A program made the position numbers and the translations under genes. The notes under the pieces were generated by a model, which made no database searches, had not been told where the DNA came from, and was given only the letters and a program-made list of their open reading frames with translations. From a virus (taxonomy: Duplodnaviria; Caudoviricetes), in IMG/VR virus record IMGVR_UViG_3300033145_002707, positions 5,218 through 69,217 of that record: DNA of 64,000 nt; one strand, 5' to 3'. The stretch's first letter is position 1. The number at the start of each line of letters is the position of its first letter. Below, one piece after another: positions 1 through 62,571 of this stretch.

Positions 1-143
1 AGAAAATCAGATTAGGGAAATTTGACATTCTGGCGTCAAAATATGGTGATGACAAAAAAGTCTCATATTCAATCAAAAGTACAGGCAGATCATTTACAGC
101 TGTTCAGCTGAAAAAATTGTTAGCATTTATAGACAAACTTTAG
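1..143 (+). CDS. Partial hypothetical protein (3' end only)
   Basis: Open frame from nt 3 (KIRLGKFDILASKY...LLAFIDKL*) ends at TAG 141-143, directly at repeat copy 1. Confidence 0.6.
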   Translation, partial: KIRLGKFDILASKYGDDKKVSYSIKSTGRSFTAVQLKKLLAFIDKL

Positions 144-205
144 CAAGGAGCCATTAAGTCCTGTGCGTTGAACGCAGCTATGAGGAAGTTACGTTCAGGT
201 TGGCT
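143..205 (+). ncRNA. Pistol-like ribozyme candidate, copy 1 (degenerate)
   Basis: GCAAGG-AGCCA-TTAAG-TCCTGT-GCGT-[P3 hairpin]-GGT-TGGCT; carries pseudoknot and P3 mismatches relative to copies 3 and 4. Confidence 0.6.
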
Positions 206-237
206 AAAATGTTAATCTTAAATGGAGGAAATGAAAA

Positions 238-741
238 ATGGAAACTAAAAAACAGGATTCAGCTTTTAAAAATCTTTACTTTGTGTCAAGTGCATTAGAC
301 CTTAAAGCAAACAGACTCTTCAAAAAGGTGTTGATGGTAAAGGATCAAATAGCAACTGGGACTGATGGATACAGATTGCACCAAGCCTCAGTACCTTTAG
401 CTGATGGCTTCTATTCTGTTCTGGCATGTACCAAACGCCATATTATCACAGAAAAGATAGAAGATGTTGATGTATATCCTAGTTTTGATGAGTGTATATG
501 TCTTGACTACAAATACCATATTAATACTGATTGTATTCAAAAAAAATTCGAAGATGATGGAGCATACGAAATAGCACTGATCAATAAGGTTGGAATTATC
601 GCATCAATTAAGCACATTCAATTCATTGTAGCATATGATAATTTTGATATCGCCTACATTAATGAAATATCACCTATATTCTTTTCAAACAAATCGTCTT
701 TAAAAGCATATGTTATGCCTATGCATCCGTTAACTGCTTAG
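238..741 (+). CDS. Hypothetical early protein
   Basis: 167-aa ORF with GGAGG RBS, flanked by repeat copies 1 and 2. Confidence 0.75.
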   Translation: METKKQDSAFKNLYFVSSALDLKANRLFKKVLMVKDQIATGTDGYRLHQASVPLADGFYSVLACTKRHIITEKIEDVDVYPSFDECICLDYKYHINTDCIQKKFEDDGAYEIALINKVGIIASIKHIQFIVAYDNFDIAYINEISPIFFSNKSSLKAYVMPMHPLTA

Positions 742-744
742 TTA

Positions 745-807
745 GCAGGGAGCCATTAAGCCCTGTGCGTTGAACGCAGTCATGAGGCAGCTGCGTTCAG
801 GTTGGCT
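745..807 (+). ncRNA. Pistol-like ribozyme candidate, copy 2
   Basis: GCAGGG-AGCCA-TTAAG-CCCTGT-GCGT-TGAACGCAGT..GCTGCGTTCA-GGT-TGGCT; predicted cut 801/802. Confidence 0.75.
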
Positions 808-1021
808 AAACTTTAAGATGGAGGAAATGAAATGGAATTATCGCAAGCTAAGATATTCCTGGTAAGACCATTGAGCCTTGTGGCAAGTGTAATTGCTTGT
901 TGGAGAGTTTTACGGTTATAGAGGTTAAAGAGAAAAAAGAATTAGTCTTGTGGTTCAATGTTGGCAAAGGCACGTTTGCAGAGAAAATGAAAATATGTTA
1001 ACCATTAAACGGAGGTGTATT

Positions 1022-1210
1022 ATGGAATTATCAGCAAAACTTAGAGCAGCACTTGCTCCAGCAAATGCAATGTTTACAGAAAGTGACAGAAGGTATTTTA
1101 ACGACCACAGATGGGAATATGCCAGTGAGTTGGCCAAGGAGATGAGATGGCCTGAATGTCAAAGGCTGGTAGCTAAAATTGACAAAGATTTTGGGAGATA
1201 TTCTTATTAG
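1022..1210 (+). CDS. Small hypothetical protein (MELSAKLRAAL...)
   Basis: GGAGGTG RBS before ATG 1022; stop TAG overlaps repeat copy 3. Confidence 0.7.
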   Translation: MELSAKLRAALAPANAMFTESDRRYFNDHRWEYASELAKEMRWPECQRLVAKIDKDFGRYSY

Positions 1211-1272
1211 CAGGGAGCCATTAAGCCCTGTGCGTTGAACGCAGCTATGAGGAAGTTGCGTTCAGGTTGGCT
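1210..1272 (+). ncRNA. Pistol-like ribozyme candidate, copy 3
   Basis: PK 1210-1215/1226-1231, P2 1216-1220/1268-1272, P3 1236-1246/1254-1264; conserved TTAAG, GCGT and GGT; predicted cut 1266/1267. Confidence 0.8.
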
Positions 1273-1297
1273 AATAACTTTTAAATGGAGGTGTATT

Positions 1298-1459
1298 ATG
1301 AATAATCAATGTCAAAATTGTATATGCTATTATACAAATTGGGATGAGGAAGTGGATGATACCATGGAGGAGCAAGCACCTGGAGAGGAATGCTCTTGTG
1401 GTATGAATCCAAACAGTCTTGAAAAGTGTGTTTGTTTCCAAGATGTAAGTGATCAATAA
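1298..1459 (+). CDS. Small Cys-rich hypothetical protein
   Basis: GGAGGTG RBS; MNNQCQNCICY...CSCG...CVCF. Confidence 0.65.
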   Translation: MNNQCQNCICYYTNWDEEVDDTMEEQAPGEECSCGMNPNSLEKCVCFQDVSDQ

Positions 1460-1481
1460 GTTTTTAAAACGGAGGTGTATT

Positions 1482-2993
1482 ATGGAAGGCACAAAAGATT
1501 TAATTCTTGCCCTTAGGGCAGGATACGCATTGTTTTATGCCCAAACCAATGAGATGGAGAGGGCAGTTGGCAGCATAGTTAAGGCTGTCAATGAATACGA
1601 AAGTGTTTCATCTGGCAATAAAGCCTATAATGCTTTGATTTGGGATTTAGAGTCTGACAAGGATCCAGATGTTGTAAGCAACATGTTAGATGGAGAAAGT
1701 CCTGGAACTGTTGTTGTAGCAAAGAATTTCAATTGGTTCTTAAAGGATGAATATGGCAATCTCAATAAGCAACTTGTGTCATATATCCAGAACCGTCTTG
1801 AGCTTTACACGACCCCAAAAGGCAGAAAAGCCTTGATAATTGTTGGGAGCGATGAGTTCGATGACGCTATTCCTCAAGTTTTATCAAAAGATTTTCTTCA
1901 GATAAACTTTGAATTGCCTGATGAAGACGAAATACGACAGATTTTTGAATCAATTGTCAATTCTGCTAAAGACAATCCAAACTTTAAGATGCCTGATGAC
2001 AAAGAAGTTGAGAGAATTATTCAGTCCTCTAAAGGCATGACCAGACGTGATGTGAAGAATGCTTATGCTTATTCAATCATCAAAGATGGTGGTGAGTTAA
2101 AGTCCAAGACAGTCGGTATTATACAGGCAAGTGATGTTGAAAAAACTCCAGGATTGAAGATAGGTGAATATCCAAAGGCCAGTCCGCTAATTGGATACAA
2201 TGAGGCTAAAGACTTTGTCCTTGATTTTATTGATGACCCTACTTCACTTGGTGTTATGCTTCTTGGTCCTGCTGGAACTGGTAAGACTTCTTTTGCCAGA
2301 TGGGTTGCAGCCAACTCTGGAAGGAAATGTATTGAGATGGAAATGGCTCAGATGATGGGTGAAGGTTTGGTTGGGCAGATGCAAAATGCTTTTAATAGAG
2401 CTATTCAAGTCATTAAGGCTAATGCTCCTTGCATACTCTTTATAGATGAGATTGAAAAGGGTTTGGCTGGAGCCAGTGGTGGTGGTGATAGTGATGGTGG
2501 AAGTATGAAACAATCTGCTGCTCAGTTCTTGAAATTCTTGTCTGATGACAGACCGGAAGGTGTTTATGTAATGGCTACGTGTAATGATATATCTCAGCTG
2601 GCACCTGAATGGGTTAGGGCTGAGAGATGGGATTGTGCTCCATTCTTTGTTGATTTTCCAAATGCTGCTGAACGAAAAGCAATATTCAAACATTACTGCG
2701 AGCACTATGAGCATAAGGCCAAAACAATTGGCAAATTTAGCACCGACAAAGATTGTGAAGGGTGGTCAGGTGCTGAGCTAAAGGCTGTATGTCGCATTGC
2801 TGCTACACTGAAAAGAAAAAATCCAGATGTTAAGCTCAAGGATGCAGCCAAGTTTATCAAGCCTATCAGCTTGACTATGGCGGAAAAGGTTACAGAGCTG
2901 AGAGGATGGGCAAAATCAAGAACCAACCCTGCTACTACTGATGTAAGCAAGGTTGCAAATGGCAAGGTGGAAGACAGAAAGCTTGAATTTTAG
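1482..2993 (+). CDS. Ycf46/SpoVK-like AAA+ ATPase
   Basis: Walker A GPAGTGKT, Walker B LFIDEIEK, MATCND, PEWVRAERWD; GGAGGTG RBS before ATG 1482. Confidence 0.9.
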   Translation: MEGTKDLILALRAGYALFYAQTNEMERAVGSIVKAVNEYESVSSGNKAYNALIWDLESDKDPDVVSNMLDGESPGTVVVAKNFNWFLKDEYGNLNKQLVSYIQNRLELYTTPKGRKALIIVGSDEFDDAIPQVLSKDFLQINFELPDEDEIRQIFESIVNSAKDNPNFKMPDDKEVERIIQSSKGMTRRDVKNAYAYSIIKDGGELKSKTVGIIQASDVEKTPGLKIGEYPKASPLIGYNEAKDFVLDFIDDPTSLGVMLLGPAGTGKTSFARWVAANSGRKCIEMEMAQMMGEGLVGQMQNAFNRAIQVIKANAPCILFIDEIEKGLAGASGGGDSDGGSMKQSAAQFLKFLSDDRPEGVYVMATCNDISQLAPEWVRAERWDCAPFFVDFPNAAERKAIFKHYCEHYEHKAKTIGKFSTDKDCEGWSGAELKAVCRIAATLKRKNPDVKLKDAAKFIKPISLTMAEKVTELRGWAKSRTNPATTDVSKVANGKVEDRKLEF

Positions 2994-3001
2994 GAGGGGA
3001 T

Positions 3002-3151
3002 ATGTCAATAAAATTTACAGTAATAATAAATGATGAGGAAATCATTGAAGACTATAAGGATACAGATGATGGATTCCTTATAATAGATTTTCTGGAAAAT
3101 CCAGATTTGTGGTTGACTTTGAATAATACAGAAATTAAATTTGAAAGATAG
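3002..3151 (+). CDS. Small acidic hypothetical protein (49 aa)
   Basis: AGGAGG RBS; MSIKFTVIINDEEIIED...KFER*; stop overlaps repeat copy 4. Confidence 0.6.
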   Translation: MSIKFTVIINDEEIIEDYKDTDDGFLIIDFLENPDLWLTLNNTEIKFER

Positions 3152-3213
3152 CAGGGAGCCATTAAGCCCTGTGCGTTGAACGCAGCTATGAGGAAGTTGC
3201 GTTCAGGTTGGCT
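3151..3213 (+). ncRNA. Pistol-like ribozyme candidate, copy 4
   Basis: Identical to copy 3 over 63 nt; predicted cut 3207/3208. Confidence 0.8.
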
Positions 3214-3249
3214 AAAAGAAAATATAAACCCAAATATAGGAGGTGTAAA

Positions 3250-3549
3250 ATGCCGTGTTGGCAAGTACAAAAATTGTCGGTCAAATTTCAAGCCAAGAAT
3301 ATAGAATTGCTTATAAATGCAATTGAATCTCTTTCCTGGAATTTTGAAAAAATTGGTGAGACCATAAAAATTAATTATGGAGATATAGTTCTTGATTTGG
3401 CAAAAGGTAAAGCTGAGTGCTATGACCAAAATGGGTTGAACAAATTGAAGGTGGCATACAGCACAAAGGCTATTGAAAAGGTAGCAGCCAAAAAAAACTG
3501 GCTGTTCAAGAAAGCAGCCAATAACAAAATGCAACTCAAAAGGTTTTAG
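3250..3549 (+). CDS. DUF1257 (Ycf35)-like protein
   Basis: About 100 aa, LLINAIESL...LNKLKVAYSTKAI pattern; lies downstream of a Ycf46-like ATPase. Confidence 0.55.
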   Translation: MPCWQVQKLSVKFQAKNIELLINAIESLSWNFEKIGETIKINYGDIVLDLAKGKAECYDQNGLNKLKVAYSTKAIEKVAAKKNWLFKKAANNKMQLKRF

Positions 3550-3562
3550 GAGGAAGTGAAAA

Positions 3563-4129
3563 ATGAGAAAATTATCCATCATAATTGCTGTATTTGTAAT
3601 GTTCATGTTATCAAATGTTTTTACTGTAGTTCATGCAGGGACAGAGTTGGAGAGAATAGACAAAGTGTGTCGTGAAAAATGGGAAATGTCAGGAGCTAAA
3701 ACACTGGCAAATGTCACATATACCACCAATGAGATAGGCTATACAAAAGCAAACAAATACCTGTATTATCACAATAAAGGCTTGAATGAGAATTATGATT
3801 TTGAAATTATTCAAAAATTAGGGAAGCATCTGGTATTTTACTGCTCAGGTGTAACAACTCATTATGGCAGGACAAAAACGACTGAATTCAATTCTAATTA
3901 TCGCCAGCTTGTTGCCATTGATGTTACAAGATCAACAGAGGAAGACAGGTTCTATTTAGACAAAGCACAGAATGGTTCTTCGCTTTTTTACCTTACTGGT
4001 GGAAAGCATTACAAATTGGTGAACTTGCTGAAGGTGGAAATTAATGGGTTTGACAGCAAGATTCCAGTTGTTGCTTGTGTTTCAAATGGTCGTGACAGGT
4101 CAATGTGGAAAATAAAATATAAAAAATAA
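3563..4129 (+). CDS. Secreted or membrane-anchored hypothetical protein
   Basis: N-terminal signal peptide MRKLSIIIAVFVMFMLSNVFTVVHA. Confidence 0.7.
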   Translation: MRKLSIIIAVFVMFMLSNVFTVVHAGTELERIDKVCREKWEMSGAKTLANVTYTTNEIGYTKANKYLYYHNKGLNENYDFEIIQKLGKHLVFYCSGVTTHYGRTKTTEFNSNYRQLVAIDVTRSTEEDRFYLDKAQNGSSLFYLTGGKHYKLVNLLKVEINGFDSKIPVVACVSNGRDRSMWKIKYKK

Positions 4130-4141
4130 GGAGGATTTGGA

Positions 4142-4324
4142 ATGTTGTTACAAGAAAAAATAAATTCAATCAAACGCACAAATGATATAAAGTCTTTTGG
4201 GTACAAGCATGAAGATTTGTTTATATTCACTGATCATGAACTTGAAGAACTTAACAAACACGGCTTAATTGGTGATTTAGACATTAGCTTGATAAAGATG
4301 AGGAGGGAATCATGTCGACAATAG
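4142..4324 (+). CDS. Hypothetical protein
   Basis: GGAGG RBS, 60 aa. Confidence 0.6.
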   Translation: MLLQEKINSIKRTNDIKSFGYKHEDLFIFTDHELEELNKHGLIGDLDISLIKMRRESCRQ

Positions 4325-4539
4325 ATATTGAAATCTTAGAAGATGGCACAATCAGTATCACGACAGGAGAAATCGCTGAGACTCAGCATCTTTCAGCAGA
4401 TGCTATGCTGACTGAGCTGGAAGACATGGTTGGTGAGATTATTTCTAAGAAAGAAAATCCAAACAGTCCTGGCAAACTTTTTTTCAAAGACAAGAGAGTA
4501 TTGAGAGGTGGCAAAATAGTAAAGGCAGGGAGCCATTAA
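4312..4539 (+). CDS. DUF2997-like protein
   Basis: IDIEILEDGTISITT pattern; the last codons KAGSH* lie inside repeat copy 5. Confidence 0.55.
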   Translation: MSTIDIEILEDGTISITTGEIAETQHLSADAMLTELEDMVGEIISKKENPNSPGKLFFKDKRVLRGGKIVKAGSH

Positions 4540-4587
4540 GCCCTGTGCGTTCAGAGATGAACTGAGGATTCATCTCTGAGGTTGGCT
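4525..4587 (+). ncRNA. Pistol-like ribozyme candidate, copy 5 (alternative P3)
   Basis: Same core, but P3 is TCAGAGATGAA/TTCATCTCTGA (perfect 11 bp); predicted cut 4581/4582. Confidence 0.8.
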
Positions 4588-4617
4588 GATGAATAATATA
4601 AACTTATAAATAGGAGG

Positions 4618-5520
4618 ATGAAGATGGCTAAAGTCAAAGAGATTCAAGAAGCAAATGTGTTTTCAGAAGGAATGTTGGTTGTAAGACGATTTCATACAGG
4701 CTGGTCTGCTGCTACTGGAGCAAGTGATTCAGAGATGGGCAATTTGCCTGTTGAGATTATCCGTGGAGTCAAAAGCCTTTTGACTGAAGATGGCAAGGAG
4801 CGATTGAGGAATTTGAACTCAATCATGAACGAGGCAAAAGGTTTTATTAGCAGGAACTCAATGCCCCATCCAATTCCAACCCTTGATTTTGTACCAAAGC
4901 ATAAGATTGAATTTGTTGACGAAGGTTTGAGGCAGAGGCAAATAAATGCTTCTGCTTGTTTTGAAGAGCTGGTTGAAAACTATGAATCAGCAAAACTGGA
5001 TTACAAAAAGAGGTATCCAGATCACTATCAGCCTGAAAAATATCCAACTGTATCAAGGCTGAGAGCTGGTTTTGTCTTTGAATGGTCTTTCAGGGTGTTT
5101 ACATCACCTTCAAAAGAAATGTCAGTGTTGCCTGCAAGCCTTTATAAGGAAGAGGTAGCAAAGTTCAAAAGCGAGGTTCAAGAGATGAAAGACATGGCTG
5201 TTGACGCCATAGGAAAAGAACTGCTCAAGAAGGTCAATTCTCTTAAAGAGCAGTGCTCGTCAGAAAATGTTGCTACGGCAACAGTCAACAGTGTTCATAA
5301 TTTTCTTGACAAGTTTGATGATTTGTGGGATGGGTTTGTAGCTCATAAAGAATTGAGGAAGATGATTCAAGAGTTGAAGAATTATATGGATGGAACTGAT
5401 GCTGAGATGTTAAGAGCTGATGATAGTTTCAGGAATATGGTTGAAAAGAAAATGACCAAGATTGCTGACCAGTTGACTGTTGATGATGGCATACTTGCTG
5501 AGCGGAGCCTTGATTTTTAA
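4618..5520 (+). CDS. DUF3150-like protein
   Basis: 300 aa with YQPEKYPTVSRLRAGFVFEW segment and helical C-terminus. Confidence 0.55.
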   Translation: MKMAKVKEIQEANVFSEGMLVVRRFHTGWSAATGASDSEMGNLPVEIIRGVKSLLTEDGKERLRNLNSIMNEAKGFISRNSMPHPIPTLDFVPKHKIEFVDEGLRQRQINASACFEELVENYESAKLDYKKRYPDHYQPEKYPTVSRLRAGFVFEWSFRVFTSPSKEMSVLPASLYKEEVAKFKSEVQEMKDMAVDAIGKELLKKVNSLKEQCSSENVATATVNSVHNFLDKFDDLWDGFVAHKELRKMIQELKNYMDGTDAEMLRADDSFRNMVEKKMTKIADQLTVDDGILAERSLDF

Positions 5521-5535
5521 GGCAAAGGAGGCAAA

Positions 5536-6129
5536 TTGAAAAAAATAAAACTCAATAGTGATGCCTCTGACGGGATGGAAGTTGATGATGTCAAAAGGCT
5601 CATAAAGTCAATGGCTTGGGTATGGAAAAGGAAATTGCCTATTGAGTCAGTCACGGACACAGACGATCTTGAGCAGGAAGGCTGGATTGTCTATGTGTCT
5701 TGCAGGCAAAAATATAGGCCAACAAGTGGTGTTAAATTTTCTACATTCTTATGGAGATGCTTGGCGAATAGGTATCAGAATGTAGTCAGATCAGAAAGGA
5801 GGTACAGAGTTAGAGTGTCAACATCTGAAGATGTTGGTCTGTTCAGATTGGATGGTCAAGCAAGCCAAGAAAGGATGACAATTATATCTGAAGCAATTGA
5901 AGTGATTAGGGAAGTTTGTCCTGAGTTAGCTGATATGATTTCGGATAGAGTGCCTGACGAGCTGTTGGCTATAGCGAGAAATAGGAAACGAAGGAATAGA
6001 ACAAAAAGAGGATTCAAATCAATAGGTGGTAATTTGACTTTTGACAAGTGGTTGCTGGAGAATTATTTTGGAGTTGAACTCGGTGAAAATTCAGCAATGA
6101 GGCGGTCGGTTTATGATATTATTGACTGA
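5536..6129 (+). CDS. Sigma-70-family RNA polymerase sigma factor-like protein
   Basis: Region-2 pattern DDLEQEGW...KYRP..GVKFSTFLWRCLANR. Confidence 0.7.
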   Translation: MKKIKLNSDASDGMEVDDVKRLIKSMAWVWKRKLPIESVTDTDDLEQEGWIVYVSCRQKYRPTSGVKFSTFLWRCLANRYQNVVRSERRYRVRVSTSEDVGLFRLDGQASQERMTIISEAIEVIREVCPELADMISDRVPDELLAIARNRKRRNRTKRGFKSIGGNLTFDKWLLENYFGVELGENSAMRRSVYDIID

Positions 6130-6171
6130 TTATTTTTAATTAAACCAAATGAATTCAAAAACAGAGGAGAT

Positions 6172-6918
6172 TTGAAAATGGTTATCAAAACTGATAGAAA
6201 ACAATTGGAGTTCTTTGCAAATGACTTGAGCATTGAGGTTGACCCAAAAGATAAGGATGAAAGTCTTTATGATGAAGTCATAAAAGCACTGGATGTTTTG
6301 ACAGATGATGAATGGGATGCTTTGAATGAAAAGACCCAGGAGTGGTCAAATGAACTTAACCAAGCCAGACTTGCTGCCAGGAAAGGGAGCAAAACTGAAA
6401 AACCTGAGAAGGAAGAGGAATCTGAAACTAAGTCTGAAAAGGCATCTAAGGAGGCACAAGAGGTTCCTGAGAAGGCCAAAAATAAGGATAAAGGTAAAGC
6501 CAATGGCAAAGAAAAATTTGCCAAAAAAGATGCTGCTAAGGAGCCAACCAAAAAAGAGTTGGATGCAGCAAAAGCCAAGGCAAAAGAAAAGGCTAAAACA
6601 GTCTTTTCAGAATCAAAAAAACAAACAACAAATGACAAGCCTTATAATGATGGCACAACAGCTTGGCATGTTTGGATGACTGTTGTTGATGCTGGCAAGA
6701 AAGGTATTACAGCTGAAGCTGCTCTACCTGAATTTGAAAAGAGGATTAAGGCTGCTGGACTTGAAACCAGCAATGCAAAGAGCAGGGTGAATACGATTTT
6801 GCGTCAGTGTGTTGACCCAAAAGGCCTGGTAGATGTGAAAGATGGTGTTTACACATCAACAAAAAAGAGTGCTGAAGCCATCAAGCAGGCTTCTAAAACC
6901 AAGAAGGAAAAGGAATAG
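6172..6918 (+). CDS. Lys/Glu-rich hypothetical protein, possibly DNA-binding
   Basis: Low-complexity K/E/A linker between two small folded regions. Confidence 0.7.
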   Translation: MKMVIKTDRKQLEFFANDLSIEVDPKDKDESLYDEVIKALDVLTDDEWDALNEKTQEWSNELNQARLAARKGSKTEKPEKEEESETKSEKASKEAQEVPEKAKNKDKGKANGKEKFAKKDAAKEPTKKELDAAKAKAKEKAKTVFSESKKQTTNDKPYNDGTTAWHVWMTVVDAGKKGITAEAALPEFEKRIKAAGLETSNAKSRVNTILRQCVDPKGLVDVKDGVYTSTKKSAEAIKQASKTKKEKE

Positions 6919-6923
6919 ATGTT

Positions 6924-6965
6924 TGCCCAGTCACTACTGATAACCAGTGGTGACTGGGCTTTTTT
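6924..6965 (+). terminator. Rho-independent terminator
   Basis: GCCCAGTCACTACTG-ATAAC-CAGTGGTGACTGGGC followed by TTTTTT. Confidence 0.85.
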
Positions 6966-6990
6966 CGTGACCTTTTTTCAGGAGCAAATT

Positions 6991-7932
6991 ATGAAAATTG
7001 TCATCATAGGTGCTGGTATATCTGGTGCTATAGCAGCAGGAGCATTGTCAAGTTATAACCCCAAAATCTTTGATGCAGCCAAGAAAAAAGTCCAAAATCA
7101 TAGAGCTGTTATGAGGCTAAGAGATAGTTCAGTTTGTATGTATCTTGGAGTTGGATACAGAAAAGTCAAAGTCCACAAGGCTATTTCTTTTGAAGGCAAG
7201 CTAAAATCAGCACCAAATATAAAAATGAATAATCTTTATTCTATGAAGACAAATGGCACTCTTAGTGATAGGTCTATAAGTAACCTTGGTTCTGCTGACA
7301 GGTTTATCATGACTCAACCTTATTCCATAAAAGATGTAGCTTATGATAAATGGCTTGTTGGTGTATCAAAAAATGCATTGTCATTTGCAGATGGCACAAC
7401 AGAAACATTCGATGCCTGTATAAGCACAATCCCTATGCCCATTATGCTTATTGCTGCTGGCATTGGAGATGCATCAGACTTGTTTGAGTATAAAAATATT
7501 TTCGTGTATAGAGGAAAATTGAATATCAAATCAAGCATAAATCAAACACTATACTTCCCGTCAGATGCATTCCATATATACAGAGCAACTATCCAAAGCC
7601 AAGACATAATCATAGAATCTGTATCAGAGATAAATCCAGAAGAGATAGCTGGAGCCATGAAATGCTTTGGAATCAAGCCACCTCATTACGACATCAGTGT
7701 TGCCAAAGTGTACAAACAAGAGATGGGCAAAATGCTGCCTATCAACGAGCACAGAAGAAAATGGTCAATAATTACCCTTACAGATACGTTCAATATATAT
7801 TCTTTTGGAAGGTTTGCCATATGGAAACCAATAAGGACAGACCATCTCGTGAGTGATATTGAGAACATAAAGGCAATGATAACAGATGACAGCAAATATT
7901 TTGCGCACAAAATTGCTATAAATAAGCCATAA
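6991..7932 (+). CDS. FAD-dependent oxidoreductase (Glf/UDP-galactopyranose mutase-like fold)
   Basis: IIGAGISG dinucleotide motif, DACISTIPMP, SFGRFAIWK; GGAG RBS before ATG 6991. Confidence 0.75.
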   Translation: MKIVIIGAGISGAIAAGALSSYNPKIFDAAKKKVQNHRAVMRLRDSSVCMYLGVGYRKVKVHKAISFEGKLKSAPNIKMNNLYSMKTNGTLSDRSISNLGSADRFIMTQPYSIKDVAYDKWLVGVSKNALSFADGTTETFDACISTIPMPIMLIAAGIGDASDLFEYKNIFVYRGKLNIKSSINQTLYFPSDAFHIYRATIQSQDIIIESVSEINPEEIAGAMKCFGIKPPHYDISVAKVYKQEMGKMLPINEHRRKWSIITLTDTFNIYSFGRFAIWKPIRTDHLVSDIENIKAMITDDSKYFAHKIAINKP

Positions 7933-11962: not shown

Positions 11963-12984
11963 AAAGAAAAATCAACGACAAAGAATTGAAAAGGGCATTA
12001 GAGCATGTATTTGGCAAGGTATCATATATCACACATGATGATGATGGAACTGTTGAGCTGGATATAGATGAGAATCATGTCTTGCAATCTGTAGCTGATC
12101 TTCCTGTTGATGGCAATGGTGTTTATATCCAGCATAATAATGCCTTGGAGCTATCAAGCCTTGATGGCTTTGACAGAACAAATGAAATGATGCAAATGAA
12201 GAATGCAAGGAGCTTTTTTCATGTGTTTAGAGTCTGGCATGGGTTAAAGTTCTTGACTGAATATACCAAGGAACATTCAGTTGTTGCTGACTTAGGTGCT
12301 GGCTATTGTGAGATGCCACACCTGTGTCAAGCAGCAATCAAAAAATATAATTACTACTGCCTCGAATTTGACTACAAAAAGCTGAATACAGTGTCTCACA
12401 GAAAGATAGGCAAATTCAACAGGGTGCTTGTTAGGTCTGACTTGACAAGAGGTGAGTTGCCATTTGGTAACGAAGAAGTTGATGCAATAATCTGCTTTGA
12501 GTTCATAGAGCACATAGCAAAAGATTCATTCCTTAACTTGCTGATCGATATGAATAGAGTGCTGAAGATGGGTGGGTGTATGGCCTTGTCAACACCAAAT
12601 ATAGAAGTAGGAAGGACACCAGCCGTTGATCACTTGTATGAATATACATATAGAGAGTTCTGTAACATACTGCTGGCAGCAGGATTTGAGGTGATAGAAT
12701 CATTTGGCATAGGTGTTGGCAAAAGGTCAGATTTGGCTGAGGCTAAAAAGACTCATTTCTATAAAGTCATGGATTCATTCTTTCCTATGACACTTGTGAA
12801 TCAATTAGCATTCATAGAACATCCTGACAAGTGCAGGAGTTTTTCTGTGTTTGTTAGAAAAACTACTGACCCTGATGCAAATGCCATGTCGTTAGTCGAT
12901 CTTAGCAAATCAATGGCACTAAATGTCGAAAGAGAATCAATGGTCAGCAAGAAACACAAAGCAGGAAGGGTCAGATACAAATGA
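11959..12984 (+). CDS. Class I SAM-dependent methyltransferase
   Basis: VADLGAGY, DAIICFEFIEH, RVLKMGG...STPN. Confidence 0.85.
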   Translation: MKRKINDKELKRALEHVFGKVSYITHDDDGTVELDIDENHVLQSVADLPVDGNGVYIQHNNALELSSLDGFDRTNEMMQMKNARSFFHVFRVWHGLKFLTEYTKEHSVVADLGAGYCEMPHLCQAAIKKYNYYCLEFDYKKLNTVSHRKIGKFNRVLVRSDLTRGELPFGNEEVDAIICFEFIEHIAKDSFLNLLIDMNRVLKMGGCMALSTPNIEVGRTPAVDHLYEYTYREFCNILLAAGFEVIESFGIGVGKRSDLAEAKKTHFYKVMDSFFPMTLVNQLAFIEHPDKCRSFSVFVRKTTDPDANAMSLVDLSKSMALNVERESMVSKKHKAGRVRYK

Positions 12985-15473
12985 TGTTTACACACCTGCA
13001 TGTACATGATCAATATTCATTCCTTGATGGATATGGTTCAGCCAAGCAATATTGTGAAAGGGCTAAAGAGTTAGGCATGAAAGCCATAGCCCTAACCAAT
13101 CATGGCAATATAGATGGAGCCATAAAATGGCAAATTGCTTGCAAAGAGGTTGGTATCAAGTCTATACTTGGAGTTGAAGCATATATTGTTCCAGACCTTA
13201 TGGTAAAAGAAAAGGGCGAGAAAAGAGGCCACATCACTTTGCTGGCCAAGAATGAAAAGGGCTGGGAAAACATATCAAAGATGCTAACCTATGCAAATAT
13301 TGATGGGTTCTACTATAAGCCAAGAATAGACCCAGAGTTGCTATTGGATCATTTGGATGGTGTGCTTGTTATGAGTGCCTGTTATGCATCCTTTATATAC
13401 ATGGATGGTGGAATCGATTTGCTTGAAGAACTTATAGCCAAAAGGGTTGATATAGCACTGGAAATAATGCCTCACGATATAGAAGGACAAAGTGAGCATA
13501 ATAAATTAATAGTTGCCTTAGCTGATAAATATGAACTCCCTTTGGTTGCAACCAATGATTGCCACTATGTTACAGCTGAGCAAGCAGATGAACAGGAAGT
13601 CTTGCTTGCTATGCAATCCAAGAAGAAGTGGAAAGATGAGAACAGGTGGAGATTTGACACCCAAACTCTTTTCTTGACGTCTGCTGAAGAAATGAAAGGA
13701 CTTTTCAAAAAGCAGAAAGCATTGCCAGCCAAAGTTGTGAATGAAGCCATAGCCAATACCAATATGATAGCAGACAAATGTAACCTTTTTATAGAGAAAA
13801 AAGACGTTTTGCTGCCAAAGCCAGATGTGCCAGGATATGAAGACATCGATGAAAATGGCCAGCTGATTCAACTAACCTTGGATGGTTTTGAAGAAAGGAT
13901 GAAGAAGCACGATTGGATAGACAAGAATAACAGGCAAGAATATCTTGACAGAATATCTGAAGAACTGGAAATCATTATTGCTCAGGGGTTTGCAAGATAT
14001 TTTTTGATAGTCTGGGAATTAATCAATTGGTGTAAAAATCCAGATGATGGTGGAGAGCCAGTGATGGTTGGTCCTGGTCGTGGTTCTGTAGGTGGTAGCA
14101 TTGTTGCCTTTTGCTTGCACATCATACAAGTTGACGCAATTAAACTGAACCTTGTATTTTCAAGGTTTATATCAGAGGGCAGAATTGATTTGCCAGATAT
14201 TGATATGGACTTTGAAGATATAAAAAGAGATAGGATATTGGAACATCTCAAGAAAACATATGGAAAGCATAATGTAGCAGGGTTGTCAACCTTTGCTAAG
14301 ATGCATGGCAGAGGTGCTTTGAGAGATGTAGCAAGAGTATTTGATGTGCCTTTGGCTGAGGTTGATAAGGCAGCTAAATCCATAGTCGTAAGATGTTTGG
14401 ATAAAGACACAAAAGTGTGGACAAACAAAGGGCCAATAGCAATTAAATTATTAGATAAAAACACTAACAGCACCAAAGTAACAGCAGCATACGGAAGTAG
14501 GAGGATAACAAAGAACATTAAAGCTATTCACAAAACTGATAGATTTGTCAATATGTATGAAATAGTGTTAGAGTCAGGAAAAAAAATAAAGTGCTCAATA
14601 GATCATTATTTTTGGACAAGGAATGTCAGGTCTGGCAAGATTGGTTGGAAAACACTGAAAAACACAGATCAAAGAACAGATACGATTCTGGCTGCTGAAT
14701 TCGATGAAGTTTATTCATTTTGTAAACAATGTGGCAAGCTGGTGTATCAGCACAGAACAGTTAAGACTCACAAAAGAATTTTTTGTTCTTTGTCATGTAC
14801 AACAACATGGAGAAACATCCACAACAATCCATTGGATGATCCAAAAGCATTGAAGAAAATGAAAGAATCAAGAAAAGGCGTAAGATGTAAATGGTTTGAT
14901 GATGAAAAGGTGGTTGCAAGAGTTTTGGCTGGCAGGCGTAAACGCATGCTTGAGAATAATCCTATGAAGAGGCCAGAAGTTAGAGCAAAAGCAAGCAAAA
15001 AATTAAAAAAAATAATGAAGGTTGTAAACAACAATCCTGCCAAGAAAGAAGCACAAAGGCAATACATGCTAAAAAGACTTGCTGACAACCCTGAATCTCA
15101 TCCATTAAGGCTTTTGGCCAAAAATCCAAGAAAAGGAGTGTCTGTTATAAGCAAGCCACAAAGTGAATTGTCTATATTGGTCAAAAAAGTCTTTGTTGGC
15201 TACAGTGTAGAGGACGAATATCCTATACAAAGAGTGATAAATGGCAAATTCAAAAAGATTGGGCATTATTATTTAGACATTGCTATACCTGAACTTATGT
15301 TGAACATAGAATATGATGGTGGATTGCATCTTTTAAACAAAAATATTAATGGTGATAAGGAAAGGGATAAATTCCTTACGAACCAAGGATGGAAAACAAT
15401 AAGATTTAATAAGAGCAACATAAAAAAAGCAAAGAAGGATTTAGATGAAATTCGAAAAAATTATATCAATTAA
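12981..15473 (+). CDS. dnaE: DNA polymerase III alpha, N-part (PHP domain and palm) + N-intein + endonuclease
   Basis: HLHVHDQYSFLDG, GPGRGSVGGS, PDIDMDF; intein begins at C472 (14394). Confidence 0.9.
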   Translation: MMFTHLHVHDQYSFLDGYGSAKQYCERAKELGMKAIALTNHGNIDGAIKWQIACKEVGIKSILGVEAYIVPDLMVKEKGEKRGHITLLAKNEKGWENISKMLTYANIDGFYYKPRIDPELLLDHLDGVLVMSACYASFIYMDGGIDLLEELIAKRVDIALEIMPHDIEGQSEHNKLIVALADKYELPLVATNDCHYVTAEQADEQEVLLAMQSKKKWKDENRWRFDTQTLFLTSAEEMKGLFKKQKALPAKVVNEAIANTNMIADKCNLFIEKKDVLLPKPDVPGYEDIDENGQLIQLTLDGFEERMKKHDWIDKNNRQEYLDRISEELEIIIAQGFARYFLIVWELINWCKNPDDGGEPVMVGPGRGSVGGSIVAFCLHIIQVDAIKLNLVFSRFISEGRIDLPDIDMDFEDIKRDRILEHLKKTYGKHNVAGLSTFAKMHGRGALRDVARVFDVPLAEVDKAAKSIVVRCLDKDTKVWTNKGPIAIKLLDKNTNSTKVTAAYGSRRITKNIKAIHKTDRFVNMYEIVLESGKKIKCSIDHYFWTRNVRSGKIGWKTLKNTDQRTDTILAAEFDEVYSFCKQCGKLVYQHRTVKTHKRIFCSLSCTTTWRNIHNNPLDDPKALKKMKESRKGVRCKWFDDEKVVARVLAGRRKRMLENNPMKRPEVRAKASKKLKKIMKVVNNNPAKKEAQRQYMLKRLADNPESHPLRLLAKNPRKGVSVISKPQSELSILVKKVFVGYSVEDEYPIQRVINGKFKKIGHYYLDIAIPELMLNIEYDGGLHLLNKNINGDKERDKFLTNQGWKTIRFNKSNIKKAKKDLDEIRKNYIN

Positions 15474-15558
15474 ACCTGTTGGCAAAAGAAAAGCATATGA
15501 TGTAGAGCTTGATCATAGGCACAAAGGATATTTTGCAAACGGATTTCAAACTCATAAC
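14394..15558 (+). mobile_element. Intein in dnaE with DUF559/Vsr-like homing endonuclease, encoded across two reading frames
   Basis: CLDKDTKV (block A), CSIDHYFW (block B), CKQC..CSLSC, LDIA...NIEYDGGLH; C-part MKFEKIISI...YDV...YFANGFQTHN followed by Ser. Confidence 0.85.
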
Positions 15559-17928
15559 TCAGGTGGGGATGTTAGAGCTGACTTTTCAATAGCTGATGCC
15601 TTTGATGCATTTGAAGATGGCAAAACTTTTAAAAGAAAATATCCAAAGGTCAGCAGAATTGCAATATCTATGGAAGGGCAACTGAAATCTGCAGGTCGTC
15701 ATGCTTGTGCTATGGTTGTTGCTGCTTCTGATTTAAGGTCTGGTGAAAATGCCAGTTTAGCCATAAGGAAGAAGGTGGTAGTTGGAAATTGGGATAAAGA
15801 AGATGCTGAGTATATGGGCTTGATGAAACTTGATGTCCTTGGCCTCAATGCCTTAACAGTATTAAATGAGTGTAAAAAATTAATCAAAAAAAGACATAAA
15901 GTAGAATTAGACTATGATACATTGGATATTGATGATCCAAAAATATATAAAGAGTTCAACGAAGGACATGGTGTAGGAGTTTTTCAATTTGCCAGCCATG
16001 GCATGATGAAGCTGTGTAGAGAGGTTGGAGTTGAAGACTTTGAGGAACTCATAGCACTCAATGCTTTGCATAGGCCAGGAACACTCAGAAGTGGACTGAC
16101 ACACAAGTACCATATGAGAAAACATGGCATAGAAAAGGTCTCATATATCCACCCTTTGATTAAGGACATCACTGAAAGAACACAAGGCATTATACTATAT
16201 CAGGAACAAGTCATGGCAATCATGTATTGGGTTGGTGGGTTGCCATGGAAGACAACAGATATGATTAGGAAGGTTGTCAGCAAAAGCAAGGGTGAGGAGC
16301 AATTCCTAAAATTTAAGAAGATGTTTATTCAAGGGTGCCTTGACAGGAAGACAGTTTCAGCTGAAGATGGAGAAAAAATATTTAGTGAGCTGCAATATTT
16401 TGGTAGTTATGGCTTCAACCGTGCCCATGCTGCTGAGTATGCAACAATAGCTGCTTGGGAAATGTGGCTTAAAGTCCATTATCCTACCGAATACATGGTA
16501 ACAATATTGACCTACGGCTCAGATGATAAAAAGGCTGAGCATATACAAGAAGCGAGAAGGCTTGGCCTCAAACTACTTCTACCAGATATCAACAAGTCTG
16601 GTGCAACAGAATGGATACCTGATGATAATGGCAATCTACTCATACCAATAAAAGAGATTAAAGGTGTTGGAGAGGTAGCAGCCAATGAGATAATCCTGAA
16701 AAGAAAACCAGCCAGATTTAGAGCTGGCGTAAAAATTGAAAATCTTGGTGGGCCATACAAAGATGTTGAGGACATGGAAACCAGAGCCATCAAGAGAAAA
16801 GTAAATTCACGTGTTGTCAAGTTGCTTGAAAAAACACATTGCTTTGGAGACAGTGATGAAAAATTAAAAATTGGAGAGATTGAACTGGATGAATTATCTA
16901 AGTGTTTCAACTTTAGCCTTTCCAACGACCCCATGTACAGATACAGGAAGATGATAGAACTGATCAAAACTCAAATCAAGCTTGAACCATTGAGTGCATT
17001 GGATTTCAGCAGAGAAAAATATAGATATCATTTTGGTAGAATGTCTATACTCAAGTTTGGATATAAAGAAGACAAGAATGTAAAAATGAAAGATGTTCGA
17101 GGAACTGCTGGTGATTTGGGTGGTGTATATGGTAATTATGAAGATGATACGGACTTTTCCATGATAGTTTTTGGACGAGAATTTTACAAAGCTAACAAAT
17201 ATGCTATAGAGCATTGCCAAGACAAATGGTTATTGGTTAAGGCCAAATCAATGAGGAGCAACAACATACACACGAGTGAACTTTGGTTTGGGGAAGACCT
17301 TATGGCAGGGAAGGCTGATGGTCTTGGACTTGAGCTTGTCAAGACACCAGAATATACTAAATCATATGATGATGATATGAAAAGATTGCTTGATTGTAAA
17401 GATTGTGAACTAAGAAATGAATGTACAAAACCAGTGTTACCAAGCAAAGGACAGATGAATGTTATGCTTTTTGGGGAAGCCCCTGGGAAAAATGAGGATA
17501 AATATGGTAGAGGTTTTTATGAGAGTGCTAAATCTGGAAAGCTAATGTGGAAAGAGTTTGACAAATATGGTCTTGAGAGGTCAATGTTTCACATAACAAA
17601 TATAGTGAAATGCTATCCATCTGAAACAAGAACACCTAAGAGAAAACACATAAAGATATGCAAACAATGGATTGATAAAGAAATAGCTACAATTAAACCA
17701 GCTATAATTCTGGCTTTTGGGAATACTGCTGTCAAATTTTTTACAGATGATGACAAAGGAATCTTTGGTTTAAGTGGTACCACTGTATGGGATGATAACT
17801 ATAATTGCTACATCTGTTGGTGTGCACACCCTGCTTCAGCTGTATATCAACATGAAAACAAAATCTATTTTGACAAAGGGGTAGAGAACTTTGCCAGAAC
17901 GTTGAACAGTGTTGGCCTTGGTGGCTAA
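15445..17928 (+). CDS. dnaE: C-intein + DNA polymerase III alpha C-part + family-4 uracil-DNA glycosylase-like domain
   Basis: GRHACA, KLDVLGL, YQEQVM, YGFNRAHA; UDG from about 17395 (CKDCELR, GEAPG, TNIVKC, HPA). Confidence 0.9.
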   Translation: MKFEKIISIKPVGKRKAYDVELDHRHKGYFANGFQTHNSGGDVRADFSIADAFDAFEDGKTFKRKYPKVSRIAISMEGQLKSAGRHACAMVVAASDLRSGENASLAIRKKVVVGNWDKEDAEYMGLMKLDVLGLNALTVLNECKKLIKKRHKVELDYDTLDIDDPKIYKEFNEGHGVGVFQFASHGMMKLCREVGVEDFEELIALNALHRPGTLRSGLTHKYHMRKHGIEKVSYIHPLIKDITERTQGIILYQEQVMAIMYWVGGLPWKTTDMIRKVVSKSKGEEQFLKFKKMFIQGCLDRKTVSAEDGEKIFSELQYFGSYGFNRAHAAEYATIAAWEMWLKVHYPTEYMVTILTYGSDDKKAEHIQEARRLGLKLLLPDINKSGATEWIPDDNGNLLIPIKEIKGVGEVAANEIILKRKPARFRAGVKIENLGGPYKDVEDMETRAIKRKVNSRVVKLLEKTHCFGDSDEKLKIGEIELDELSKCFNFSLSNDPMYRYRKMIELIKTQIKLEPLSALDFSREKYRYHFGRMSILKFGYKEDKNVKMKDVRGTAGDLGGVYGNYEDDTDFSMIVFGREFYKANKYAIEHCQDKWLLVKAKSMRSNNIHTSELWFGEDLMAGKADGLGLELVKTPEYTKSYDDDMKRLLDCKDCELRNECTKPVLPSKGQMNVMLFGEAPGKNEDKYGRGFYESAKSGKLMWKEFDKYGLERSMFHITNIVKCYPSETRTPKRKHIKICKQWIDKEIATIKPAIILAFGNTAVKFFTDDDKGIFGLSGTTVWDDNYNCYICWCAHPASAVYQHENKIYFDKGVENFARTLNSVGLGG

Positions 17929-61440: not shown

Positions 61441-62571
61441 TTAGCCAAACATATCATCAAACAAAGACTCTATATCCTTTGGCAACATCCCTCTTTTATA
61501 TTTAGGAGATGTATATGCAGAAAAACATTCAGAAAATGCTTCATCAGCGTTTGTCCCTGCATATCTACTGACCCCTTTTTCAAAGAATTTTGAACCTCTT
61601 TTGCTAAAAATTTTATTCCATTTTTTGGTAAAATTTTTCTTTTTCAAAACACCACTTCCAGCAATTTCAGTTTTGATGAAATGTCCAAACTCATGACGAT
61701 ATATCCCCAACAAATCAGACGAAACACTAAAATTCTTTTTTCCAACTTTCAATCTGTGCAAATCATGGCCCTTTTTCAAAGTTGATGACATAAACATTTC
61801 AGCATCACCAGCAAGGTAACTACCAATTTGATTTGTCCCTGGCAAAACATCTCTTTTATAAATTTTGATTGATTTTAGTCTTGAAGAAGAACCCCTGATG
61901 ATATCTTTGGTCTTCAAGAATGACGCTTCAATTCTATCAAATTCTTTAAGCATAGGATTTAACACTTTATCCAACAACTCTTTTTTGGAAAATTCATGTT
62001 CAAAGCCTGCTGTAAAATTCGAACCAAATTGAGATGAACTAAACCTTTCCTTAGCTTCATCTACAGTTTTTGCTGGAGTGAACCTTGGTGGCTTGGGCTT
62101 TAAGATAGGCTTTGTAGGCTTGCCAAAAATCTTTTTTAACACAGACTCATTAATTTCCTGCATGTCTTTAAATTTAAATGTTTTTATGCCTTTGTCATAA
62201 TACATCTTCCCGGTTCTATCATCAATTACAACTGTATGTAAATTCACACCAGGGTGCTTCTTAGCCTCAGCCAACTTCCTTGCCAAAGAATCTTTAGGCA
62301 TATAGACACCATCGATACCAGCTTTAGAAGCCTTTTTGACTATTTTGACGTCAACAAAGTGCTTTGGCCTGCTGGATGTACCAACTCTAATGTCAAACGG
62401 AACAGACCTCCCTGGCAACGTGTCACCACCTATAGATGACGCAAGCTTAGAGCTTTTAGATGCATTATCAATCTGACTATTGCCAACAATTGGCCTATCA
62501 ACAGCTGTAGCCTTTTTGATTTTTGATACATCCTTTTTTGTCAAGCACACCTTGGCTTTTGTAAACAACAT
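61441..62571 (-). CDS. Two-domain protein: possible PD-(D/E)xK-like N-domain plus zincin metallopeptidase
   Basis: PFD...VDVK; HEFGH...YA.TN..EAFSE. Confidence 0.6.
   Translation of the reverse strand: MLFTKAKVCLTKKDVSKIKKATAVDRPIVGNSQIDNASKSSKLASSIGGDTLPGRSVPFDIRVGTSSRPKHFVDVKIVKKASKAGIDGVYMPKDSLARKLAEAKKHPGVNLHTVVIDDRTGKMYYDKGIKTFKFKDMQEINESVLKKIFGKPTKPILKPKPPRFTPAKTVDEAKERFSSSQFGSNFTAGFEHEFSKKELLDKVLNPMLKEFDRIEASFLKTKDIIRGSSSRLKSIKIYKRDVLPGTNQIGSYLAGDAEMFMSSTLKKGHDLHRLKVGKKNFSVSSDLLGIYRHEFGHFIKTEIAGSGVLKKKNFTKKWNKIFSKRGSKFFEKGVSRYAGTNADEAFSECFSAYTSPKYKRGMLPKDIESLFDDMFG

Follow-up and report, generated by a model that had tools for sequence, protein, structure and literature searches.

Five + strand copies of a 63-nt element lie between early genes of an uncultured phage, and in the last of these copies the central hairpin (P3) has been replaced while its flanks are the same as in copy 3. 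What kind of element can exchange a whole helix and leave the remainder untouched, and what would it be doing between genes? The window examined here, a stretch of 64,000 nucleotides, was taken from the record of an uncultured virus (69,217 bases), of which it covers bases 5218-69217. A probe for the core of the element found exactly five sites in it and none in shuffles, and the same five copies were recovered from the window by a covariance model (R1, filters off) at 70.5-84.2 bits, the next best hit scoring 11.4 bits. We consider it probable (about 0.7) that the repeat is a derived variant of the pistol ribozyme which lacks the P1 hairpin and is predicted to cut polycistronic phage mRNA. 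This reading is built on four observations: the element is homologous to pistol in sequence and structure, it lacks P1, its P3 covaries together with single pairs of P2 and of the pseudoknot, and it is placed strictly between cistrons.

Copy 1 (143-205; 70.5 bits with R1) is the weakest of the five. Its pseudoknot, GCAAGG/UCCUGU, contains one mismatch and one wobble, giving a computed helix energy of -2.1 kcal/mol as against -8.3 kcal/mol in the other copies, and its P3 contains a C-A mismatch. Copy 2 (745-807; 83.0 bits) differs in the distal part of P3, while copies 3 (1210-1272) and 4 (3151-3213) are identical (81.9 bits each) and copy 5 (4525-4587) scores highest at 84.2 bits. Self-cleavage is predicted at 199/200, 801/802, 1266/1267, 3207/3208 and 4581/4582 for copies 1 to 5, respectively. 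A sixth, truncated copy was identified upstream of the window (L284:4362-4405; G000:C1): its 5' half is intact through GCG-UU, but P3, the cut site and the 3' strand of P2 are deleted, so that GCG-UU is joined straight to a ribosome-binding module. Together with copy 1 and a decayed copy (L270:1911-1971, described below), it indicates that some copies are not maintained.

The P3 hairpin of copy 5 (4550-4580, arms 4550-4561 and 4569-4580, loop CUGAGGA at 4562-4568) is the feature to which attention had first been drawn. Within it, the arms TCAGAGATGAA (4551-4561) and TTCATCTCTGA (4569-4579) enclose the loop CTGAGGA, a combination with one match in the window (0.01 expected), while copies 3 and 4 carry TGAACGCAGCT and AGTTGCGTTCA around the loop ATGAGGA (1236-1264 and 3177-3205); copies 1 and 2 possess this latter hairpin with one and three mismatches, respectively. 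The first-pass annotation had described P3 as wholly replaced in copy 5 with the core unchanged, and the comparison with copy 3 agrees: 16 of 31 bases differ over 4550-4580, while the 25 nt on the 5' side and the 7 nt on the 3' side are identical. Among the 11 pairs that were first named, seven are changed on both sides, one on one side and three on neither. Both P3 types form a stem of 12 pairs, counting an invariant closing U-G, and enclose a loop of 7 nt; by computation they are about equally stable (-15.0 and -16.1 kcal/mol). Since a whole hairpin could move as a unit by recombination, the contrast between copies 3 and 5 does not by itself amount to stepwise compensation. The copy at L270:1911-1971 possesses a P3 of the copy 5 type with one further double change, from A-U to G-C, which suggests that P3 types are both inherited and exchanged.

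Comparison across a wider set of copies allowed the structure to be examined pair by pair. With a covariance model based on 17 copies of equal length, 90 copies were identified in 57 sources, and the alignment of these 90, fitted to that model, contains 61 distinct rows. Over these the whole structure is paired in 98.9% of cells and 12 of 21 pairs change on both sides, a result reached by none of 500 shuffles; sliding the 3' partners by 1-3 columns lowers the pairing to 27-51%. For P3, 99.8% of cells are paired and nine of ten pairs show double changes, which upholds the earlier reading of this hairpin as a target of selection on RNA structure. The same follows from an ungapped alignment of 17 sequences (99.7% of cells paired, nine of ten P3 pairs doubly changed, 0/500 shuffles reaching any of the measures) and from an alignment-free check in which pairs were counted inward from fixed anchors, all 49 unique P3s forming an unbroken stem of 7-14 pairs. 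P2 (AGCCA/UGGCU) is paired in 98.0% of cells, its outer pair being AU in 54 sequences, UA in three and another combination in three. The pseudoknot (GCAGGG/CCCUGU) is paired in 98.1%; among the 61 distinct sequences its first pair (1-22) is GU in 58, AU in two and GC in one, and its last pair (6-17), beside P2, is GC in 52, GU in three, AU in one and other in five. The inner four pseudoknot pairs show no substitution by another standard pair, two being invariant and two having a single mismatch only; covariation of the pseudoknot is accordingly sparse, and these four pairs neither support nor oppose it. Apart from the changes at single pairs, the pairs of P2 and the pseudoknot are near-invariant, but they were mostly fixed by the search pattern and therefore carry little evidential weight.

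The strand on which this structure is to be read can also be determined. The closing U-G of P3 is present in 58 of 59 scored sequences and there are 24 further G-U cells; on the other strand these would be A-C mismatches, so the fold is read as that of a + strand RNA. Covariation that keeps pairing equally well on the minus strand was not seen. These data bear on the idea that the element acts at the level of DNA only, as a palindromic binding or recombination site or as a small mobile repeat with no role in RNA. Its dispersal, the inverted repeat that it contains and the repetition of the ribosome-binding module downstream of it are all in keeping with such an origin, but every copy lies on the coding strand of its neighbours, and the RNA family model matches one strand only. 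A DNA-level repeat is extremely improbable and, because the G-U pairs are strand-specific, can for practical purposes be excluded.

If the element is an RNA, to which family does it belong? Searches of the whole window against Rfam at curated thresholds returned no match. With a permissive search of positions 100-4700, all five copies matched Pistol (RF02679) at 21.4-28.9 bits (copy 1 lowest, copy 5 highest), below the cut-off of 34.5 bits; Pistol was the sole Rfam family to match all five, and always at model positions 23-68 of 68. The match spans P2, the UUA.G junction, the 3' strand of the pseudoknot, GCG-U, P3, the G-U junction and the 3' strand of P2, and the five copies align with high posterior probability to the conserved UUA.GC...GCGU...GGU columns of the family. 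Short-P3 relatives with the same P1-less architecture exceed the cut-off in 9 of the 14 listed matches, at 35.2-35.9 bits. No hammerhead family appeared among the Rfam matches to 100-4700 up to E = 10.

All parts of this core can be placed on the + strand of copy 5. The 5' strand of the pseudoknot, GCAGGG (4525-4530), pairs with CCCUGU (4541-4546) and abuts the 5' strand of P2, AGCCA (4531-4535), which pairs with UGGCU (4583-4587); the two pseudoknot strands are placed by the covariation counts and by RNAalifold, which predicts their helix independently, and the UGGCU strand by the Rfam alignment and the covariation counts. The pseudoknot partner is not scored by the Rfam model and is nonetheless present and complementary in every copy. 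Between these strands lie the junction UUAAG (4536-4540), aligned to UUA.G of the Rfam consensus, and GCG (4547-4549), aligned to GCGU; after P3 there follows the G-U junction (4581-4582), aligned to the two-nucleotide GU of the model, within which self-cleavage is predicted. G4547, the first G of the GCG, we take to be the general-base guanine by homology. For the role of this base we follow a review (PMC6154101). Nested folding and RNAalifold both predict the pseudoknot helix and P3; in both predictions AGCCA lies in a loop and UGGCU stays unpaired at the 3' end, as P2 requires if it is to form as a pseudoknot.

What is missing is the 5' part of the model. Model positions 1-22, comprising the P1 hairpin and the linker that follows it, are unmatched in every copy of the window. 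The P1 hairpin, which would supply the 5' strand of the pseudoknot, is absent and the sequence 5' of the element is unconserved among copies; likewise there is no A-rich linker between P1 and P2, whereas canonical loci possess linkers of the AUAAA type. Scans of IMG/VR with a pistol-core pattern returned canonical pistols and a few P1-less forms among the matches listed. For 28 distinct cores with good P2 and P3 among these matches, the distance from the 5' strand of the pseudoknot to P2 was 0 nt in seven (four copies of the window's own record and the loci L014, L073 and L080) and 11-18 nt in the 19 canonical, P1-bearing rows; two were left unscored, namely copy 1 with its mutated pseudoknot and one doubtful match. 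A distance of 0 nt means that no 3' arm of P1 can exist. In the accessible text of Harris 2015 (PMC4604425), P1 is a standard feature of the pistol consensus drawn from 500 examples.

The remaining features are those of canonical pistols. They comprise P2, a UUA(A/G)G junction and GCG-U, a P3 that varies in sequence, a G-U junction of two nucleotides, a pseudoknot whose six pairs form onto the P2-P3 junction, and an intergenic location in phages. Canonical pistols in the loci collected here have a ribosome-binding site downstream as well. Besides the loss of P1 and of the A-rich linker, the variant differs from them in that P2 comprises five pairs, where canonical rows pair at only four of five scored positions, and in that P3 is often long (10-14 pairs) and ends in a Shine-Dalgarno-like loop.

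A pattern specific to the P1-less layout detected 56 metagenome loci. Many of these contain 2-5 copies within 1-3 kb, L239 having five in 1,753 bases, and the covariance model recovered several copies that this pattern had missed. IMG/VR contained, besides the window's record, only four contigs with the P1-less pattern, with one copy each; an exact-core scan of IMG/VR gave no match, nor were P1-less forms with the pistol pseudoknots CUGGG/CCCAG or CUGAG/CUCAG identified there. Among deposited phage genomes (INPHARED), nothing matched copy 3 with its leader. The only match among 185,579 species genomes is at L283:1112-1172, on a 4.9-kb contig of a metagenome-assembled genome labelled Candidatus Bathyarchaeia. 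This copy scores 74.6 bits and is identical in length and score to copies at L251 and L273, so the contig is probably that of a phage which was binned with an archaeon.

Does the core persist where the search did not demand it? The core letters were required by the search pattern and their constancy among pattern matches is thus forced. The nine full-length copies found by the covariance model alone are free of this restriction, and in seven of them UUAAG, GCG and the GU junction are intact; one of the other two has UUGAG and the second, L270:1911-1971, is decayed at several core positions. In the latter, GCG has become ATG and UUAAG has become UUAAA, one base of a pseudoknot strand is missing, and P3 is still paired; this copy precedes a homologue of the window ORF at 1022-1207. 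The core persists beside proteins that are just 21-58% identical to those of the window, and in L246, L272 and L265 the element stands ahead of homologues (about 22% identity) of the ORF starting at 4624.

These results have to be set against the view that the element derives from pistol but is catalytically dead, being kept between cistrons as a structural module that does not cleave itself, for example as a protector of 3' ends after cutting by a host nuclease or as a binding site for a protein or the ribosome. According to the accessible text of Harris 2015 (PMC4604425), a mutation that disrupts P1 caused a substantial loss of activity in a canonical pistol; a form lacking P1 may therefore be slow or dead. 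The decayed L270 copy, without its core letters yet with P3 paired, points in the same direction, as does the loop of long P3 stems (see below), whose conservation suggests a partner outside the element. What such a module leaves unaccounted for is that letters needed for catalysis only, namely UUAAG, GCG and a GU of exactly two nucleotides, have stayed fixed while P3 was rewritten repeatedly, and that the core is intact in seven of nine copies outside the search pattern, since a structural role needs no such letters. A dead module is for these reasons judged unlikely, though its probability is appreciable.

Solved pistol structures, as far as they are described in the accessible parts of the two articles, indicate how P1 might be dispensed with. 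The pseudoknot is stacked between P3 and P1 with P2 alongside (PMC11300833; PMC6154101), and P1 stacks on the far end of the pseudoknot with the A-rich linker lying in its minor groove, where the linker makes an A-minor triple with P1 (PMC11300833). P1 and the linker leave and return near one point and could be deleted together, and the loss of P1 is consequently structurally plausible. The mismatches tolerated at the pseudoknot pair adjacent to P2 fit a tight turn at this position. Canonical pistols with the same pseudoknot letters were identified (L021 and L054), and the P1-less form could have arisen from a canonical pistol of this type by a deletion of approximately 12 nt.

The placement of the element with respect to genes is strict. 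All copies are on the same strand as the neighbouring ORFs, and in 71 of 81 distinct contexts the stop codon of an upstream ORF falls between -11 and +12 relative to the base that opens the element. In 25 of those 71 the stop is a TAG whose G is this base, and in 15 of the 81 the TAA inside UUAAG serves as the stop, as it does in copy 5. There, a 75-aa ORF on the + strand (4312-4539) has its last five codons inside the element; it ends K-A-G-S-H-stop with TAA at 4537-4539, so the suggestion that the 5' half of the element is dual-coding was correct. The label of DUF2997-like given to the same ORF in the first-pass annotation found no support, as 4312-4536 matched no Pfam family even at E values up to 5 and no PHROGs entry. 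Downstream, a Shine-Dalgarno sequence and a start codon are found 19-53 nt past the end of the element in 71 of 81 contexts, mostly at 25-27 nt, the truncated copy upstream of the window being an exception with its start codon at 1 nt. For copy 5 they occupy 4611-4626 on the + strand and consist of AGGAGG and the ATG (4624) of the next ORF, which starts 36 nt past the element. A 20-nt ribosome-binding module, TTAAAYGGAGGTGTATTATG, occurs at 1005-1024, 1281-1300 and 1465-1484 and once more behind the truncated copy that lies upstream of the window; homogenisation seems to have affected the gene starts of this block as well as the copies of the element.

The block containing the five copies encodes small unknown proteins, an AAA ATPase and a sigma-like factor, while the rest of the window is that of a contractile-tailed phage. 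The block is closed by a strong intrinsic terminator on the + strand (6925-6959), a 15-pair stem followed by a T run. This was the only strong + strand site called in 1-7200, and none of the five copies was itself called as an intrinsic terminator.

An H-type pseudoknot that begins at or within a few nucleotides of an upstream stop codon in 71 of 81 contexts might be suspected of acting on the ribosome at that stop, by readthrough or by termination-reinitiation. With zero spacer, the pseudoknot would be inside the ribosome during decoding of the stop, and such a role leaves the specific pistol core unexplained. Of 62 contexts, 20 have both flanking ORFs in one frame, as many as chance would give, and the frame is open in just four. 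Since the frames agree no more often than by chance, readthrough or coupling is very unlikely.

Returning to the P1-less pistol as a cleaving element, the following course of events is proposed. After loss of the P1 hairpin and the A-rich linker, the pseudoknot strand GCAGGG runs directly into AGCCA of P2. The + strand transcript would adopt a compact pseudoknotted fold and undergo self-cleavage between G57 and U58, which in copy 5 are 4581 and 4582. This site is assigned by homology from the cleavage of pistol inside the GU junction between P3 and P2, as given in the accessible text of Harris 2015 (PMC4604425). The upstream message would keep the whole fold and end in a 2',3'-cyclic phosphate, while UUGGCU, bearing a 5'-OH, would open the downstream message ahead of a short A-rich leader and a strong ribosome-binding site. 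With five cuts of this kind the early block, up to its terminator at 6925-6959, would fall into segments that contain one to four genes each. Cyclic-phosphate and 5'-OH ends change RNA decay and translation, and similar effects are conceivable here. Catalytic activity, the exact cut site and any effect on mRNA stability or translation are thus predictions of this model.

The loop of P3 adds a further element to be explained. Of 38 unique P3s with a long stem (10-14 pairs; loci L232-L282 and the window), 36 have GAGGA or GGAGGA, a Shine-Dalgarno-like motif, in the loop, compared with a mean of 11.3 and a maximum of 22 in shuffled loops; in the window these loops are at 4562-4568, 1247-1253, 3188-3194 and 782-790. 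Short P3 stems are capped instead by tetraloops, UUCG and GAAA among them, and the motif occurs in 0 of 16. As it outlasts complete replacement of the stem, the motif is probably functional. A search of the flanks for complementarity to the loop gave nothing past chance-size matches of 4-6 nt and thus no pairing partner. One extension of the cleaving reading is that the P1-less pistol is an active minimal ribozyme of about 57 nt whose cutting is gated by translation, making it a ribosome-sensing separator of cistrons. As the upstream stop overlaps or nearly abuts the element, the pseudoknot and P2 would be opened by a ribosome that terminates there; a long P3 would bind the 30S subunit through its Shine-Dalgarno-like loop; and cleavage would be coupled to ribosome traffic on each cistron. 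We put this forward as a speculative and rather doubtful proposal.

Weinberg et al. are said to have reported in 2015 that the canonical pistol is a self-cleaving ribozyme. Among the early genes of phage T7, RNase III sites lie between cistrons and long duplexes are cut there by a host enzyme, and RiboJ is an engineered synthetic ribozyme insulator. As in these systems, a polycistronic message would be cut between cistrons, so that the RNA upstream of the cut ends in a structure and the RNA downstream of it starts with a defined leader; set against them, the P1-less variant would be cut by the RNA itself, independently of the host. The pseudoknot-type hammerhead, as described in the accessible text of Zhan et al. 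2024 (PMC11300833), resembles pistol in the way its helices are connected and in its overall fold; in both, the loop of a stem-loop makes the pseudoknot and there is an A-minor triple on that stem. It differs in possessing a hammerhead catalytic core and in retaining the stem that is absent from the P1-less variant. Theta ribozymes, according to the accessible sections of Kienbeck et al. 2024 (PMC10879173), offer a parallel as a pared-down self-cleaving subfamily that is abundant in phages and linked to RNA processing; they are minimal HDV-like ribozymes of gut phages and so belong to another ribozyme class, with a context beside tRNAs. No description of a P1-less pistol was found in the accessible literature, in which consensus models and structures of pistol have P1 and its A-minor linker as standard parts.

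If active, a natural and recurrent family from which P1 and the linker are deleted would redefine the minimal core of pistol. Standard annotation misses the window copies, which score under the Rfam cut-off. The biological role of self-cleaving ribozymes in bacteria and phages is still open, according to the accessible part of a review (PMC6765202), and arrays in which as many as five copies occupy 1.75 kb and sit exactly at gene boundaries provide a clear, testable case of ribozyme-driven operon processing. The short sequence and freely exchangeable P3 of the element could also allow it to serve as a compact insulator part.

Two further features of the window were recorded outside the block of early genes. 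The gene for the alpha subunit of DNA polymerase III is split into two ORFs (12981-17925), the first with intein-splicing and DUF559/endonuclease-like matches and the second ending in a uracil-DNA-glycosylase domain. An ORF on the minus strand (61441-62568), next to that of a Mu F-like head protein, weakly matches the Pfam family of the anthrax lethal factor N/C-terminal domain (E value 2.4e-08) and looks as if it carries a metalloprotease-type domain.
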